DNA of 64,000 nt, taken from NCBI GenBank assembly GCA_965198235.1, contig OZ240248.1, forward strand, positions 1,120,001 to 1,184,000, read 5' to 3'. Position numbers and translations under genes: made by a program. Shown in pieces: positions 336 to 6,227 of the stretch (position 1 is the first letter of the stretch; each line of letters starts with the position of its first letter). The DNA is from Candidatus Poribacteria bacterium (lineage in GTDB: Bacteria; Poribacteria; WGA-4E; WGA-3G). The notes beneath the pieces were generated by a model. The model saw only the letters and a program-made list of their open reading frames with translations. It did not search any database and was not told where the DNA came from.

Positions 336-1631
336 TTATCCGTTCCGAATATCCGATACTTCTTCAAAAATGACACGGTGGTAACGCTTTTTCCCGGCGC
401 GAAGGAGTAATGCATTCTCCTCAATCATGCTAGCATCAACAGTAGTATCTATCGCACGATACTGTTTCTCGTTGATGTAGGCACCGCCTTGTTGAACGAG
501 CCGTCGCGCCTCGCTACGTGAATTCGCCAATCCGACCTCATGGAACAACTCCATAATCGGGATGCCACTTTCAAATCGCTCGGGAGCGATAACAGAAGTG
601 GGCATTGCTATATCATCTAGCTTACCGCCACCAAATGCGGCACGCGCCGCTGCTTGTGCTTTGTCTGCCTCCACTTTTCCATGGGCAAGTTGTGTGACTT
701 CATAGGCGAGAATTTCTTTTGCTTCCTGAATGTTTTCGTCTTTAAGTTCCCCTAATCGCCGGATTTCCTCCATGGGAAGGAAGGTAAAACAGGCTAAGAA
801 CCGCGCAACATCTCGGTCGTCTGTGTTAATCCAGTATTGATAGAATTCGTAAGGAGATGTCCGGTTTGCATCGATCCACACTGCACCACCTGCGGTTTTT
901 CCCATCTTCGTCCCATTTGCGGTAGTGAGCAACGGCACTGTGACTGCGTATACCCGTTCGCCTGCGATCCGGCGGACGAGATCGACTCCAGCAAGGATAT
1001 TGCCCCACTGGTCGTCTCCGCCGAGCTGGAGGCGGCACTCGTATTTTTGAAAAAGACGCAAATAATCGTATGCCTGGATGAGTTGATAATTAAATTCAAG
1101 GAATGAGAGCCCTTGCTCGCGCTCAAGCCGCTGCCGGTAGCCTTCTGCGCGGATCATTTCATTGACTCGGAAATGTTTACCGATGTCGCGTAGAAATTCG
1201 ATATAATTTATAGAAAGTAGCCAATCGGCATTGTTAAGGAACCTGCCGGCTTTCGGGACAGTTTCCGAATTATCTGCCCTTCCTGTTCCATTATTCAGAT
1301 CTAAGTAACGTTGCAGCTGTGCAAGGATACCCTCACCGTTAGCTGCGATTTGTTCCTTTGACAACATGGAACGCATCTCGGTCTTGTCTGTCGGGTCGCC
1401 AATCATAGTTGTTCCACCACCGATAATAGCGATCGGTCTATGTCCTGCGCGCTGCAGATGTGCCATCGCCATTACAGGGACCAGATTCCCGATATGCAGA
1501 CTCGTCGCTGTCGCATCAAAACCGACGTAGCAGGTGATCTGTTTTTCCGATAACAGGTTTGCGACACGCGCTTCATCGCTACATTGTTGAATGAGACCCC
1601 GTTCCTTCAGGGTTTCAAAAACGCTTCCCAT
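336..1631 (-). CDS. tyrS: Tyrosine--tRNA ligase
   Basis: HIGN and KMGKT class I motifs, GGDDQWGN, C-terminal S4 domain (SRSEARRLVQQGG). Confidence 0.98.
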   Translation of the reverse strand: MGSVFETLKERGLIQQCSDEARVANLLSEKQITCYVGFDATATSLHIGNLVPVMAMAHLQRAGHRPIAIIGGGTTMIGDPTDKTEMRSMLSKEQIAANGEGILAQLQRYLDLNNGTGRADNSETVPKAGRFLNNADWLLSINYIEFLRDIGKHFRVNEMIRAEGYRQRLEREQGLSFLEFNYQLIQAYDYLRLFQKYECRLQLGGDDQWGNILAGVDLVRRIAGERVYAVTVPLLTTANGTKMGKTAGGAVWIDANRTSPYEFYQYWINTDDRDVARFLACFTFLPMEEIRRLGELKDENIQEAKEILAYEVTQLAHGKVEADKAQAAARAAFGGGKLDDIAMPTSVIAPERFESGIPIMELFHEVGLANSRSEARRLVQQGGAYINEKQYRAIDTTVDASMIEENALLLRAGKKRYHRVIFEEVSDIRNG

Positions 1632-1642
1632 TTTTCACCCCT

Positions 1643-1682
1643 AAAAAAAATACCCAACATTGAATCATTTTCAACGTCGGGT
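1643..1682 (-). terminator. Intrinsic terminator (attenuator) directly before the tyrS RBS
   Basis: RNA ACCCGACGUUGAA-AAUGA-UUCAAUGUUGGGU forms a 13-bp stem (2 G-U pairs), followed by A and U8. Confidence 0.85.
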
Positions 1683-1735
1683 GGTGATAATTTGAACTGA
1701 TTAAAAAACCTTAAAACATCATTGTTTACAAACCT

Positions 1736-1885
1736 TCACCACCTCCCGTTGCAGTATAAATAGTAATACAGTCCGAGCGTAAAAAGGGCGTACGTGTAGG
1801 AACCACCGGAGCGTAAGTACACCTGCACGAGCCGGACGCTGCTTATTTGTACTGAAGAGAGAGTATTGTGGTAAAGTGTGTGCAT
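1736..1885 (-). CDS. Putative Tyr-rich leader peptide of tyrS (49 aa)
   Basis: MHTLYHNTLSSVQISSVRLVQVYLRSGGSYTYALFTLGLYYYLYCNGRW*; 8 Tyr codons, YYYLY shortly before the stop; stop region overlaps the antiterminator strand. Confidence 0.75.
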   Translation of the reverse strand: MHTLYHNTLSSVQISSVRLVQVYLRSGGSYTYALFTLGLYYYLYCNGRW

Positions 1886-1953
1886 GTTCGATTTTTTTTC
1901 GTAGTGTAAGGCTGTGGTTAGATCGAAACCTTCCTACATTCTTTCCTAAATAT

Positions 1954-1982
1954 ATTATATCAGAAAGTGTTCGGCACATCAA
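1954..1982 (-). promoter_or_regulatory. Sigma70 promoter for the tyrS leader
   Basis: TTGATG-N17-TATAAT with extended TG on the minus strand. Confidence 0.7.
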
Positions 1983-2086: not shown

Positions 2087-4492
2087 TCAAAATTCATATG
2101 TAGCTCCGAAAGCGAAGTTAAAAGGGAACCGCACCGGACTTCTATACTCCGAGGTTTCCAAGTCTATGGGTAATTCTTCGGCATCTGCCTTTTTGAATTC
2201 TGTAACGAGTTTATCAGGGAAACTGAAATTAATTTTATTTTGGCTGTTATAGACATTCCAGACCTCGATGAACTCTGTTACAGGGATGCCCCATTGGGTT
2301 CTTTTGCGACTCAAGCGCAGATCTAGGGTGTGATACGCTTGAAGCGCAGCGGGCGCAATCGCACCAGCAACATCGGAGAGGGCTGGATGCATACCGAGCG
2401 TCACTGGGTCTTGAATCATCAAGAGTGTACTCAGGGGAACTGCAGAAGTACCGCTTGCATATTGCCACTTTATGCCGATATTGTTTATCGGTGTTGGGCT
2501 ATAGTTAGCGACGACACTGACGATGTGCGTATTGTCAAAGAGGAACGGTTTGTAGGCAGCATCGAGTGTCTCACGGCGTTCGGCATGCGTATAGGCGTAT
2601 GAGACCCATCCGAAAAACTTTTCGCTGATGCGGTGTCGCAAGAGTGCCTCTACGCCGTTCACATAACCTGTTCCTTGATTGAGATACGCAGTTGTAATCG
2701 GTGTATTCGTGTCATCAAAAAAGGCATCCGTGTTGACGGACCGAGTGACTAATTTTTTCAGATCTTTGTAATAAAGCGCGAGTTTGAGTTCGGTTTGTGA
2801 TGAGAGATGATGTTCTAATTCTACGACATAATGCTCGGCAATGCTCGATTTTAGGTTCTTATTTCCATCTCTGCTTAGCACCTGATATGCGAATGGGCTC
2901 TGTTCGTATCTGCCGTAGGCGAATCGGAGCTTGGAAGTTGTTGGGAGCGTGATGCTAAGGCTCCCGCGCGGTTGAATTGAGAGTTCTTCGGTCAGGTTGA
3001 GGTAATCAAATCTCACACCCAGGGCGAGCGACAGAAATGATAGCGGATCGTAGCGTGCTTGTAGGTATCCCTCGGCACGCTGGAAACCGTAGTTAAGTGT
3101 ATCGTATTTCTCTTTCCAAACGAGTTTCTCATCATCGGAACTGATGTTCTCTGGGAGAATGGTGCGTGTTGAACTTTCGGCTGGACTGAAGGCAAAGAGA
3201 AATCCCGGCTCGACTTGAAGGGTGGGTGTGAACTTATAGGACAGGTCTTCGCGAAGGGTATAGGTCGGGGCATTGACCAGGGCAGTGTAGACAAATTTCT
3301 CACTTGGGGAGCTGTCCTCTCGGCTGGAACCGCCACCGAAATTGAGATTCAGAAAATTATAGGAGTGTGTAAACGAGAGGTGGGATGTGAGTCTATCAGT
3401 AAGATGTGAGCGGAGATGGATGCCTTCTGCCTGAAACCCGTTTTTGAAATAGGCGGAAAAATTAGTGGATTCTTCTGTGTCATTAGATCCAGCACTGGAG
3501 AAGTCGAAGTGATCTGTCGCGCCTATAGCGTTAAGCGTTAGGTGATGTTTTTTGGTGAGTTGATAAGCAAATTTGAGTTGGTAATCCGACCAGCTGGGAA
3601 ATGTCCAATCAACGAAATACCTTAAAATGAGATCGATAGTCATGATACGCCCGGAGACCGATGCGTATCCTTTGTCTCCAATTTTTGCTTCAAAGAATCC
3701 AGAGGGTGCTATAAAGTTCATATCGAATACACCACCCCATTTCTTCTTCAAGTGTTCTCGGGAACGGATGTCAATAATAGCTTGTGAATCTAATCCAAAT
3801 TCCGCACCATAGCCACCGGCGTAAACGTGCATCGCCTCAATACTATCTGAATTCGTCGTTGTGAAGAGTCCACCAAAGTGAAACGGATAGCCAAGCGGGG
3901 TTCGATCGAGGTAGATGAGCGTGTCCCCTGGCGCGCTCCCGCGGATATAGAGGGCGCGAAAGAAATCGTTGGGAACACCGATGCCCGGCAGGGTCATGAG
4001 TGCTCTGAGGGCATCACGTCCGGCACCCGGAATCCGTATCATTTCGCTGCCTCGCATCACTTTACGGCTAATCGTTGGCGGAAGGCGTTGTCCTTCCACA
4101 ACCACTGTTTTGAGTTGGACAGTTGTTCCGACGTACATTTTCACCTGTGTGGTATCACCGGCTGTGACCTCTATTTTCGCAGTTGTCGGTGTCTTGGACG
4201 TTGGATGCAGAATCGACAGGGTATAGGTGCCGGGTGCGATACCGGTGAACTGAAAATTCCCGGAAGCGTCGGTTCTCGTAGACACATCGACTTCAATGCA
4301 GTGCACCTCTGCCGCAACTAAGGGTGCGTCGGTGTCATGTAAGTAGACGGTGCCTTCTATATCACCTGTGGTCGGCAAGACCAGCTGTCGGATGCTTTCG
4401 GACTTATCTTCTTTAGCAGTGTCTGTTTCGGCGAACACAGGGAACGGCATTATGAGCCCTATAAACAGGGCGGAATATAAGCAAAATTTCAT
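2087..4492 (-). CDS. TonB-dependent receptor with N-terminal carboxypeptidase-regulatory-like domain
   Basis: Signal peptide from MKFCLYS (start chosen at 4492), plug motif ALYIRGS, YAGGYGAEFG, C-terminal Phe. Confidence 0.88.
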   Translation of the reverse strand: MKFCLYSALFIGLIMPFPVFAETDTAKEDKSESIRQLVLPTTGDIEGTVYLHDTDAPLVAAEVHCIEVDVSTRTDASGNFQFTGIAPGTYTLSILHPTSKTPTTAKIEVTAGDTTQVKMYVGTTVQLKTVVVEGQRLPPTISRKVMRGSEMIRIPGAGRDALRALMTLPGIGVPNDFFRALYIRGSAPGDTLIYLDRTPLGYPFHFGGLFTTTNSDSIEAMHVYAGGYGAEFGLDSQAIIDIRSREHLKKKWGGVFDMNFIAPSGFFEAKIGDKGYASVSGRIMTIDLILRYFVDWTFPSWSDYQLKFAYQLTKKHHLTLNAIGATDHFDFSSAGSNDTEESTNFSAYFKNGFQAEGIHLRSHLTDRLTSHLSFTHSYNFLNLNFGGGSSREDSSPSEKFVYTALVNAPTYTLREDLSYKFTPTLQVEPGFLFAFSPAESSTRTILPENISSDDEKLVWKEKYDTLNYGFQRAEGYLQARYDPLSFLSLALGVRFDYLNLTEELSIQPRGSLSITLPTTSKLRFAYGRYEQSPFAYQVLSRDGNKNLKSSIAEHYVVELEHHLSSQTELKLALYYKDLKKLVTRSVNTDAFFDDTNTPITTAYLNQGTGYVNGVEALLRHRISEKFFGWVSYAYTHAERRETLDAAYKPFLFDNTHIVSVVANYSPTPINNIGIKWQYASGTSAVPLSTLLMIQDPVTLGMHPALSDVAGAIAPAALQAYHTLDLRLSRKRTQWGIPVTEFIEVWNVYNSQNKINFSFPDKLVTEFKKADAEELPIDLETSEYRSPVRFPFNFAFGATYEF

Positions 4493-4667
4493 GGATGGAT
4501 TTCGGCTTCCTTTAGAATAGGTTTGTAAGTGGATGCTCCCTGAAGTAACATCTTGCATCGAGGTGTAACACATACTGAAATGCCAGAAAATCGTCAATCT
4601 CGGTATGCTGAATGGCATAGTTATCGCCAGTTGGAATCACCCACATTTGCAGATAACGCTGATACCG

Positions 4668-6227
4668 TTACGGTTTCTGAAAAATCGTATCGTCCAATGC
4701 GGTATCAATCTCTGTTTTTGTAAAGGCGTAATTGACCGTTAACGCACCGTCCCCAATGAAGATTCCGTAGGAATTGGGCAACATTACACCTTCATAATCC
4801 GTGTAATCGTCGTAGTGAAGGACTGCGATAGCATTTTTGGCATTCATGCTTGTATAGGTGGTCTTCGCTCCGACGAGTAGGTTGGAAGCCTTATCGATAT
4901 AGAATACATCTTCCGTGTCAATGACGCGAATCACTGAGCATTCCTTACCTCGGAACAGTTCATCTTCATTTTGTTGAAATACGCTGCTACCAAGTTCTTC
5001 GTAGATTGCCTGCAATGGATAGATATAGGTTGTGCTTTTGGCACGCCCATATTCTGTTTCTGGAAGGATTGTTGGGCTGTTTGCCATAACAGATTTCCAA
5101 CCGTCTGTGCCATTCCAGATGGTGATCTCACGGAAAAGTTCACCGAAGTCGAGCTTAGTATACGATTTTTTTCCAACGATTGCTGCTATTTCAACGCTAC
5201 CCGATTCTTTCACGGGTTCTCCATTCCATTGCGTCAGTTGCGCGTCGCCGGAACGTTGGACATTCCGAATTTCTGAGAGCCGCGCGAGGCCGCCAATGGC
5301 ATTAAAGTGTGATTCAAGAATATCGTTAAGTTTCATGCCTGTTCCATTCCTTTTATTGGTGCCATCGGTATTTCCAAGCTGATTTCGCGCATCCGGTTTT
5401 GATAAGAGATCGAGAACAATGGGTGCGTCAATGAGTTCTACTGTCATTTCGGAAGTGGCATCAAAACTGTAGGGCTGCTGGAAGCGCGCCAAGTATTGGT
5501 TACTGATTCCTAACATCATTACAACAAGGATAGCCGTTGAGGCAGCAATTGCCCAGGGTACTATCGGTGGGTTGCCCCCGGTAGGTGGTAAGGGTTTGAT
5601 ACGCGGGATTTCACGCATGATATTCTCGGTTAAATTGGGAGATAGTTGAAAGCTGCCGAGAGCCTCTCGAATCATTGGTTCGTACTTCTTCAAACGTTCT
5701 CGTGCCCGGTGGACACGCGTCGCAACTGTATTGATGGATACGCCTAAAAACTCGCTTATCTCTGCGTATGTCATTTCGCCGAAATAGTAGAGCGTGATAA
5801 CGGTGCGATCGCTTTCCTTCAATTTCGCCAGTAAATTTTTTACGAGTTCGCGTTTTGTTTCCGCTGCACTTTCTGCCTGCTCTGCAGCGACATGTCTGGA
5901 ATAAGAACTCCTCTCTGTCATTGCTATATCTATCTCCTCTAAGGATTGCGTTTGGACACGTTTCTTGCGGAGCCATGCAAGGCAGCGGCGACTGGCGATG
6001 ACATAAAGCCACCCCGGAAACTGGCTTGGATCTTTCAGCGTCGCTAATTTCCGATAGACTTGTAGGAACGTTTCCTGCGTAATATCTTCGGCGGTATGGA
6101 AATCTCCTATTTTTCGCCATACAAGCGCGTGAACCCGCTTCTGGTACTTTCTAACCAAGCACGCAAAAGCAGCATCATCGCCTTCAAGGATACGTTGAAT
6201 CAGTTCAATATCGTTGTTTCTCATCAA
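4668..6227 (-). CDS. ECF sigma-70 factor with C-terminal TM helix and extracytoplasmic extension
   Basis: Region 2 (AEDITQETF..WLYVIA), region 4 (TYAEISEFLGVSINTVATRVHRAR), TM segment (WAIAASTAILVVMMLGI), then about 270 aa of soluble domain. Confidence 0.9.
   Translation of the reverse strand: MMRNNDIELIQRILEGDDAAFACLVRKYQKRVHALVWRKIGDFHTAEDITQETFLQVYRKLATLKDPSQFPGWLYVIASRRCLAWLRKKRVQTQSLEEIDIAMTERSSYSRHVAAEQAESAAETKRELVKNLLAKLKESDRTVITLYYFGEMTYAEISEFLGVSINTVATRVHRARERLKKYEPMIREALGSFQLSPNLTENIMREIPRIKPLPPTGGNPPIVPWAIAASTAILVVMMLGISNQYLARFQQPYSFDATSEMTVELIDAPIVLDLLSKPDARNQLGNTDGTNKRNGTGMKLNDILESHFNAIGGLARLSEIRNVQRSGDAQLTQWNGEPVKESGSVEIAAIVGKKSYTKLDFGELFREITIWNGTDGWKSVMANSPTILPETEYGRAKSTTYIYPLQAIYEELGSSVFQQNEDELFRGKECSVIRVIDTEDVFYIDKASNLLVGAKTTYTSMNAKNAIAVLHYDDYTDYEGVMLPNSYGIFIGDGALTVNYAFTKTEIDTALDDTIFQKP

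Follow-up and report, generated by a model that had tools for sequence, protein, structure and literature searches.

In this study, we present evidence that the tyrosyl-tRNA synthetase gene tyrS near the start of a 64,000-nucleotide stretch of Candidatus Poribacteria DNA (contig OZ240248.1, positions 1,120,001 to 1,184,000; hereafter the window) is preceded by a ribosome-mediated leader-peptide transcription attenuator, which would couple the second tyrS copy of this genome to the supply of charged tRNA-Tyr. We assign this reading, which is built on sequence comparison, a probability of roughly 0.85. The strongest support for it appears to come from sister families of the phylum, in which one and the same RNA scaffold carries runs of Ile codons in front of ileS and runs of Leu codons in front of leuS. 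The original prediction, made from the letters of the window, had proposed a Tyr-codon leader-peptide attenuator and was right in substance, being supported by leaders conserved in relatives, by covariation in the hairpins and by codon runs that match the gene downstream. It had also treated the element as specific to tyrS, and this part did not hold: the window's leader is rather a copy from a leader family whose main target is 3-deoxy-D-arabino-heptulosonate 7-phosphate (DAHP) synthase. Throughout the text, G000 denotes the window's own genome (5.17 Mb), G007, G017 and similar handles denote related genomes, and leader coordinates are read on the minus strand.

The tyrS leader and its alternative hairpins

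All elements of the leader lie within the gap of 455 nt that separates tyrS from the gene upstream of it (Table 1). The short, Tyr-rich upstream open reading frame (uORF) of 49 codons that had been predicted in this gap is present there in every particular, namely its coordinates, its eight Tyr codons and its YYYLYCNGRW end before the stop. Tyr accounts for 3.36% of the residues in G000 open reading frames of at least 400 aa, and the probability of finding at least eight Tyr among 49 codons is 2e-4, that of at least four among five being 6e-6. We assume that the uORF is translated. The tyrS leaders of G007 and G017, two genomes of the same genus, contain a homologous uORF, also of 49 codons and ending LYLYLYCNGRW before the stop, with five and three Tyr codons as compared with the eight of the window, whose run is free of Phe. 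A GGA lies 13 nt upstream of the uORF in G007 and G017, and AGGA is found in the DAHP-synthase leaders.

The intrinsic terminator, a 13-bp stem followed by U8, was found just as the prediction had described it; the U8 tract (1650-1643) ends 11 nt before the tyrS start codon, and the hairpin by itself folds at -16.9 kcal/mol. As to the claimed complementarity between the end of the uORF and a strand overlapping the 5' arm of this terminator, the 8-nt core stands, since GGUGGUGA (1743-1736) is exactly complementary to UCACCACC (1687-1680), but the extra CG/CGG that had been included requires a bulge. A second antiterminator helix is formed by CAACG (1751-1747) with CGUUG (1676-1672), and together with the 3-nt internal loop the antiterminator takes up 11 of the 13 bases of the terminator 5' arm. 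The idea of two competing hairpins was thus borne out, but the antiterminator is made of 8 + 5 bp plus the helices of the spacer and not of 10 nt. The RNA from 1752 to 1666, in which region 4 has not yet been made, folds exactly into the antiterminator at -26.0 kcal/mol. When region 4 is included, the terminator state reaches -29.7 kcal/mol and the forced antiterminator state -28.6 kcal/mol, and such near-equal energies are as expected of a kinetic switch. Moreover, with region 1 predicted to pair with region 2, the layout would be the classical one of alternating 1:2, 2:3 and 3:4 pairings.

On the basis of this arrangement, the element might work as follows. Transcription would begin near 1947, and the leader would fold either as the 2:3 antiterminator or as the 3:4 terminator. 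When Tyr-tRNA is plentiful, the ribosome would reach the UGA and cover region 2, whereupon the terminator would form and transcription would end in a short leader RNA; when the uORF is not translated at all, region 1 would pair with region 2 and the outcome would likewise be termination. When Tyr-tRNA is scarce, the ribosome would stall at the YYYLY run, 6-20 nt upstream of region 2, leaving region 2 free to form the antiterminator while region 4 is still to be transcribed, and RNA polymerase would continue into tyrS. We infer the stalling, the timing and the role of tyrosine supply as the signal from the disposition of the parts and their counterparts in relatives.

Table 1. Elements of the tyrS leader and flanking genes, in window coordinates
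Feature	Position	Strand	Description
Leader-peptide uORF	1885..1736	minus	ATG, 49 codons, TGA; MHTLYHNTLSSVQISSVRLVQVYLRSGGSYTYALFTLGLYYYLYCNGRW before the stop; 8 Tyr; ends YYYLYCNGRW
Regulatory codon run (putative)	1768-1754	minus	TAT TAC TAT TTA TAC (YYYLY), codons 40-44; from sequence and alignment
Region 1, putative anti-antiterminator strand	1881-1859	minus	uORF codons 2-9; pairs with 1747-1730; minimum free energy fold
Region 2, antiterminator 5' strand	1751-1736	minus	CAACG 1751-1747, 3-nt internal loop, GGUGGUGA 1743-1736; contains UGA 1738-1736
Spacer	1735-1688	minus	Small helices closing the antiterminator loop; RNAalifold and pair counts on alignment A3
Region 3, antiterminator 3' strand	1687-1672	minus	UCACCACC 1687-1680 and CGUUG 1676-1672; overlaps terminator 5' arm
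Intrinsic terminator (3:4 pairing)	1682-1643	minus	13-bp stem, 1682-1670 with 1664-1652; 5-nt loop 1669-1665; A + U8 1651-1643
tyrS ribosome-binding site	1641-1636	minus	GGGGUG, ahead of ATG at 1631
tyrS	1631..336	minus	431 aa; Pfam tRNA-synt_1b; NCBIfam TIGR00234 tyrS at 406.9 bits
Sigma-70-like promoter site	1982-1954	minus	-35 TTGATG 1982-1977, 17-nt spacer, extended -10 TG-TATAAT 1961-1954; 10/12 matches
Upstream gene, TonB-dependent-receptor-like	4618..2087	minus	CarboxypepD_reg and Plug domains

Leaders before DAHP synthase, tyrS, ileS and leuS

The leader (1900-1632) was used as a BLAST query against 112 genomes of the family. Besides the full-length matches, which occur in G000, G007 and G017, the 3' half of the leader, comprising the Tyr run, region 2, the spacer and the terminator, matches a second locus in 79 of these genomes, G000 included. 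We studied 31 loci, namely 30 from the BLAST matches listed and the G000 copy, and built alignment A3 on these 31 leaders. Three of them lie before tyrS, and the other 28 (28/28) lie directly before DAHP synthase as judged by blastx; the G000 enzyme combines Pfam DAHP_synth_1 with a ferredoxin-like domain. A homologous uORF of 49-66 codons is found in 31/31 leaders. Its frame stays open as far as region 2 in every one of them, which holds for neither of the other two frames; these close within 15 codons in 15/31 and 19/31 leaders. Differences in length amount to whole codons, often LY units, and in another genus the uORF ends with ALFTLGLYPFLYCGGRW before the stop. Over the aligned last 12 codon columns, the last Tyr codon encodes Tyr in 31/31 leaders, and two further columns hold Tyr in 28 and Phe in 3, and Tyr in 24 and Phe in 7, respectively, with synonymous variation between TAT and TAC and among the Leu codons CTG, TTG, TTA, CTC and CTT. 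The stop codon falls inside the GGUGGUGA of region 2 in 30/31 leaders.

Both hairpins are maintained across the 31 leaders. The terminator has 97.0% of its cells paired, with 2 pairs changed on both sides, and the antiterminator has 96.9% of cells paired versus 24-60% with a slid partner, both sides having changed in 5 pairs and 35 cells. The spacer helices (A3 columns 286-290 with 322-326, and 292-294 with 316-318) add 4 pairs changed on both sides. A3 column 347, which corresponds to window position 1673, covaries with its antiterminator partner (AU 20, GC 8) as well as with its terminator partner (UA 13, UG 10, CG 8), as two alternative helices predict. The region 1:2 pairing has 75.3% of cells paired versus 36-50% when slid, and 2 of its pairs covary. 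An alignment of related leaders had been proposed as a check on the Tyr run, the stop position and covarying stems; the first two are kept in the leaders of both tyrS orthologs and of the 28 DAHP-synthase genes, and both hairpins, about 97% paired, show compensatory changes. Because it is conserved in relatives, the arrangement of the leader is not a product of chance.

The G000 aroF leader itself lies at C1:3081650-3081941 (locus L146, 857-1143), and its uORF ends with GLYLYLYLYLYSNDRW before the stop. About three tandem units of about 40 nt, containing aaccgaaaacttgctattaagaaggcggtg, stand between the aroF terminator and the aroF start (L146 1190-1300; G000:C1:3081990-3082100), and among DAHP-synthase loci the distance from terminator to gene ranges from about 45 to 200 nt across genomes. 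Among variants of the tyrS leader, L059 retains a degenerate piece of the terminator arm only, and at L100 the terminator follows a promoter after about 50 nt, with no long uORF.

The scaffold extends well beyond this family. A covariance model, R1, built from tyrS and DAHP-synthase leaders only, served to search 151 genomes from the phylum, and at E ≤ 1e-3 it found matches in 98/99 genomes of the family labelled f1, 10/10 of f2, 26/26 of f3, 1/4 of f4 and 1/1 of f9, with none in the 10 genomes of f5-f8 at the same threshold. In f2, the leader stands before the single tyrS in 10/11 genomes. In f3, which has a different type of tyrosyl-tRNA synthetase (TyrRS), the scaffold is found ahead of a type-I-alpha DAHP synthase, and further copies stand before ileS, the product of which has an N-terminal part of 486 aa that best matches TIGR00392 at 363 bits versus 152 for valS, and before leuS, which encodes a LeuRS editing domain. 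Regions 2, 3 and 4 hardly differ between these gene contexts (alignment A5), with 96.5% of antiterminator cells and 99.5% of terminator cells paired and almost no covariation.

It is the codon run that follows the gene. Within the last 14 conserved-frame codons ahead of region 2, the ileS leaders contain 5-8 Ile codons in 5/8 cases, the remaining three having 6, 3 and 2 Ile by eye, and the leuS leaders contain 4-8 Leu codons with at most one aromatic codon (4/4). The leaders of type I-alpha DAHP synthase carry 1-4 Tyr together with 1-3 Phe (7/7), those of DAHP synthase in f2 carry 3 Tyr (3/3), and those of tyrS in f2 carry 2-3 Tyr (9/10).

Some of the loci deserve separate mention. At the f2 loci L025, L026, L028 and L188-L190 a tandem arrangement is seen on one strand, in the order attenuator, tyrS, second attenuator and DAHP synthase. 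In the f3 ileS leader L191, a second frame opens with GTG, reads through a Leu run (LLGLFLLLLSLRLA) and stops 9 nt into region 2; since the Ile run there is made of ATTATT repeats, this Leu run is probably a by-product of the repeat. Second R1 matches in G023, G132 and G109 (L219, L220 and L221) were rejected as attenuators, being stand-alone terminators: these near-identical copies directly follow the stop codon of a gene for a membrane protein, lack a uORF and are followed by neither tyrS nor aroF.

Within G000 itself, a weak R1 match (E = 0.44) at C1:1239027-1239160 (L215) lies before the gene for a 1063-aa IleRS, about 55 kb past the end of the window. This ileS leader has an antiterminator and terminator of matching design, and its uORF, which ends with ISIIIIAIRRAVVG before the stop, contains an Ile run. 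An unbiased scan of G000 for terminators that have a codon-run uORF ahead of them returned 44 candidates, of which the ileS leader ranked first; the aroF and tyrS leaders were recovered as well. The candidates beyond these three looked random, and the second-ranked one, a Leu/Ile run at C1:725879, was rejected, as it falls within the promoter region before a protein-kinase-like gene. G000 leuS has a plain promoter, and no attenuator was found before it.

Attenuation weighed against other readings

Several observations weigh against a ribosome-mediated attenuator at the window's tyrS, or at least against parts of it. When a ribosome footprint was masked at Tyr40-44 in an equilibrium fold of the whole leader, the 1:2 pairing and the terminator persisted. 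Since ribosome masks in equilibrium folding did not abolish the terminator, we treat the switch as kinetic, and read-through would need co-transcriptional timing as well as a region 1 held by trailing or initiating ribosomes. RNAalifold, moreover, favours a register shifted by 3 nt (GGUGGUG with UAUCACC) that is compatible with the terminator, and the region 1:2 pairing is conserved in part, at 75%. In the leaders of the f2/f3 type, antiterminator covariation is nil because the hairpins are conserved in sequence. The Shine-Dalgarno element of the window's uORF is weak, consisting of an A-rich tract only. Constraint on the whole peptide is weak: the median ratio of nonsynonymous to synonymous differences (pN/pS) is 0.65, and the entropies at the three codon positions are 0.70, 0.78 and 0.90. 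We judged a dN/dS-type test on the whole peptide to be uninformative at this value, and the weak constraint is in keeping with a leader peptide that acts through its codons and not through its product. The tyrS-type leader is also rare, being limited to 3/112 genomes of the family, and exact-pattern scans of metagenome contigs yielded 0 further stretches of this type. Among the relatives, the exception to the Tyr runs of the f2 tyrS leaders, L029 of G025, the only genome of genus g2, keeps the hairpins with Phe and His in place of Tyr and a frame that runs into the terminator, and G042 (L111), of family f2, has a tyrS with no leader. Finally, the relatives are kin, and counts across genomes overstate their independence.

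Four other explanations were considered; all are weaker than ribosome-mediated attenuation, and none of them explains why the codon runs match the genes. A divergent T-box, or another tRNA-binding RNA, could sense uncharged tRNA-Tyr directly while the uORF is incidental. Region 2 does contain a UGGUG-like sequence and, as happens in T-boxes, forms an antiterminator in competition with the terminator; UAC and UAU triplets occur as well, and the organism does possess T-boxes, for the Rfam model finds one at C1:4749386-4749665 (+) before ilvB-ilvN with 102.8 bits (L217) and another at C1:757232-757436 (-) before pheS with 83.6 bits (L218). However, the same model (RF00230) gives no match at E ≤ 10 in 1400-2300 of the window, and Rfam as a whole, amino-acid leader families included, gives there only 4 chance-level snoRNA/miRNA matches (E 0.67-9.4) and no match at E ≤ 0.1 in four homologous leaders. 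This agrees with the original prediction, which had noted the absence of a T-box. Moreover, an incidental uORF would not remain open in 31/31 leaders with whole-codon insertions and deletions, nor would it switch to Ile and Leu runs before ileS and leuS, and we regard direct sensing of tRNA as the least probable of the four. Nearly as improbable is a nascent arrest peptide of the TnaC kind, sensing a free amino acid or some other signal through its C-terminus (C/S-N/G-G/D-R-W-stop). It would account for the R-W-stop kept in 30/31 family-f1 leaders and for an unusually long leader of 49-66 codons, but the conserved end codons double as the antiterminator strand, so that RNA pairing explains their conservation. 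The f2/f3 leaders, furthermore, end otherwise (GGL, with stops 20-32 nt later) and yet keep their codon runs, and versions with Ile and Leu are in keeping with a sensing of codons.

A slightly better, though still very unlikely, explanation is that a protein or small ligand rather than the ribosome switches the hairpins, for example TyrRS bound to the leader of its own gene, or an RNA or protein that binds tyrosine. The near-invariance of regions 2-4 in A5, which are better kept than the peptide with its pN/pS of 0.65, and the weak Shine-Dalgarno of the window would speak for it. Against it stand the stop codon fixed inside region 2 in 30/31 leaders, the lack of an Rfam match and the occurrence of one RNA scaffold before five gene families with only the codon run differing; a single ligand or protein could not then control each gene specifically. 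Unlikely as well, albeit the least so of the four, is a decaying or constitutive relic, either a DAHP-synthase leader that was duplicated and now does no more than reduce the expression of tyrS, or a separate gene, for a small RNA or a small protein, with its end at the terminator. The presence of a second tyrS with a leader in as few as 3/112 genomes, the remnants L059 and L100, the stand-alone terminators after an unrelated gene in 3 genomes, the weak Shine-Dalgarno and an RNA-library contig that spans just the leader are all in line with this idea. A relic, however, is at odds with parts that are all intact in the window and in both orthologs, with the eight Tyr codons of the window versus five and three in the orthologs and a run without Phe, and with a window antiterminator that folds as it does in the family. 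A ribosome-mediated attenuator reading Tyr codons is the explanation that we prefer.

Known systems, RNA evidence and the second tyrS

In the textbook view, the control of aminoacyl-tRNA synthetases is split between T-boxes in Firmicutes and a few leader peptides, namely that of pheST in Escherichia coli and those of some genes in Actinobacteria and Caulobacter. Bacillus subtilis tyrS is under a T-box riboswitch (Rfam RF00230), with which the window's element shares the gene, a terminator/antiterminator output and a signal from tRNA-Tyr charging; the B. subtilis sensor, in contrast, is an RNA-tRNA pairing that needs neither ribosome nor uORF, and the window gives no match to its model. In Escherichia coli, the pheM-pheST synthetase operon is under leader-peptide attenuation. 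The original prediction had compared the window with this logic, and the comparison holds: both have a uORF with cognate codons, hairpins that alternate between antiterminator and terminator, and an intrinsic terminator immediately ahead of the synthetase gene. The window's leader differs in that it concerns Tyr and tyrS, has a longer peptide (49 codons), places its stop inside the antiterminator strand and has region 1 at the very start of the uORF; it shows no sequence homology to pheM-pheST and no match to an Rfam leader family, and its host is an uncultivated Poribacteria known from a metagenome-assembled genome. The E. coli attenuator is credited to Springer et al. 1985 in the accessible part of PMC11802643.

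Leader peptides of synthetase genes outside E. coli are also in print. The available portions of the sources describe them for leuS and trpS in Streptomyces (PMC1262725), for alaS, thrS, trpS and leuS in Streptomyces (PMC8079986) and, in Caulobacter, for trpS, together with an ileS leader coding sequence (PMC4117421). Like the window's leader, these are predicted or RNA-seq-supported ribosome-mediated attenuators before synthetase genes, with cognate codon runs, outside the gamma-proteobacteria. They differ, as far as those portions go, in having 12-22 codons, in being mostly leaderless and in being unrelated in sequence to the window's leader; none of those described there is for tyrS, and none is reported there as one homologous scaffold reused for several genes. 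Aromatic-codon leader peptides with a terminator before DAHP synthase, as in the Poribacteria, are represented by aroR-aroF of Corynebacterium glutamicum (Neshat et al. 2014, as described in an excerpt of PMC11802643), whose AroR run is Phe-Tyr-Phe and is reported there to respond to Phe and not to Tyr, and by the uORFC-13-1 motif before aroF in Acholeplasma (PMC8632094, consulted in extract). To judge from these extracts, the Poribacteria leaders are sequence-unrelated to both and are set apart by their (LY)n repeats and by one copy attached to tyrS. The original prediction had named no leader-peptide attenuator for tyrS, and our full-text search of the literature, with most subscription journals and supplements beyond its reach, returned none, the synthetase leaders described being for other genes, and nothing on attenuators in Poribacteria.

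On balance, and with some reservation, we favour the view that one ancestral scaffold was duplicated within the order and re-programmed through its codon run for at least five gene families (two DAHP-synthase classes, tyrS, ileS and leuS), as a ribosome-read counterpart of the T-box operating beside true T-boxes, and that the leader of the window's tyrS would be the first leader-peptide attenuator to be described for a TyrRS gene. T-boxes and leader-peptide attenuators coexist in G000, since both types were found there. An uncultivated phylum of sponge symbionts would thus use, in one genome, T-boxes (pheS, ilvB) as well as leader peptides (tyrS, ileS, DAHP synthase). The specificity of the leaders appears to be set by the codon run alone, which would make them a natural series of matched controls for codon-programmed attenuation, and it suggests that new attenuators can arise by duplication and a few codon changes. 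It may also explain how a reserve second tyrS could be switched on when Tyr-tRNA charging drops. Because the mechanism is classical, the gain lies in breadth and in an evolutionary case rather than in a new principle.

The promoter predicted upstream of the uORF is present as a site with 10/12 matches, but such a site is not rarer than in shuffled sequence: in the 1-kb region, 2 promoter-like sites were found versus 1.6 expected in shuffles, so that the site alone is not significant. The G007 ortholog has retained the -10 region of this site (TGGTATAAT). RNA evidence comes from two metatranscriptome runs, X1 and X2, both from one study, whose contigs were aligned with the window; such contigs show neither RNA ends nor levels, and DNA may contaminate libraries of this kind. 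A contig of 269 nt from X1 covers exactly 1654-1922 with zero mismatches at a depth of 14.8, and two contigs from the body of tyrS in the same run have depths of 4.2-4.4. In X2, a contig lies at 1744-1935, and the RNA contigs thus start at 1935 and 1922, downstream of the promoter-like site. A DNA contig spans 300-2126 uninterrupted. The depth of the leader contig fits an abundant terminated leader RNA, which we take as a weak hint; stretches of tyrS left uncovered in X1 and X2 were not counted as evidence.

G000 has two tyrS copies, that of the window and another at C1:1720391-1721659, which are 79% identical. Among 41 relatives searched with the protein, two copies were found in G007 and G017 only. 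Their orthologs of the window's tyrS are about 83-86% identical to it, and both carry the homologous leader. In a TyrRS tree, the three attenuated copies (G000, G007 and G017) cluster in one clade, whose sister group comprises all of the genus's housekeeping copies; we used the topology alone and set aside the automatic attenuator labels, for which a too-strict pattern had missed most f2 leaders. The housekeeping tyrS copies of the genus have a different, well-conserved 5' untranslated region of about 190 nt that begins directly after a TATAAT box (loci L003, L008-L023 and L033-L076; in G000, upstream of C1:1721659). No Rfam family matches this region, and no consensus structure was obtained for it with RNAalifold; a hairpin-like segment, CTACAAAC...GTTTGTAG, varies in step within it. 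Also upstream of the window's tyrS, within 2087-6227 on the minus strand, a protein of 519 aa is encoded that combines the N-terminal half of an extracytoplasmic function (ECF) sigma factor with a long C-terminal extension.

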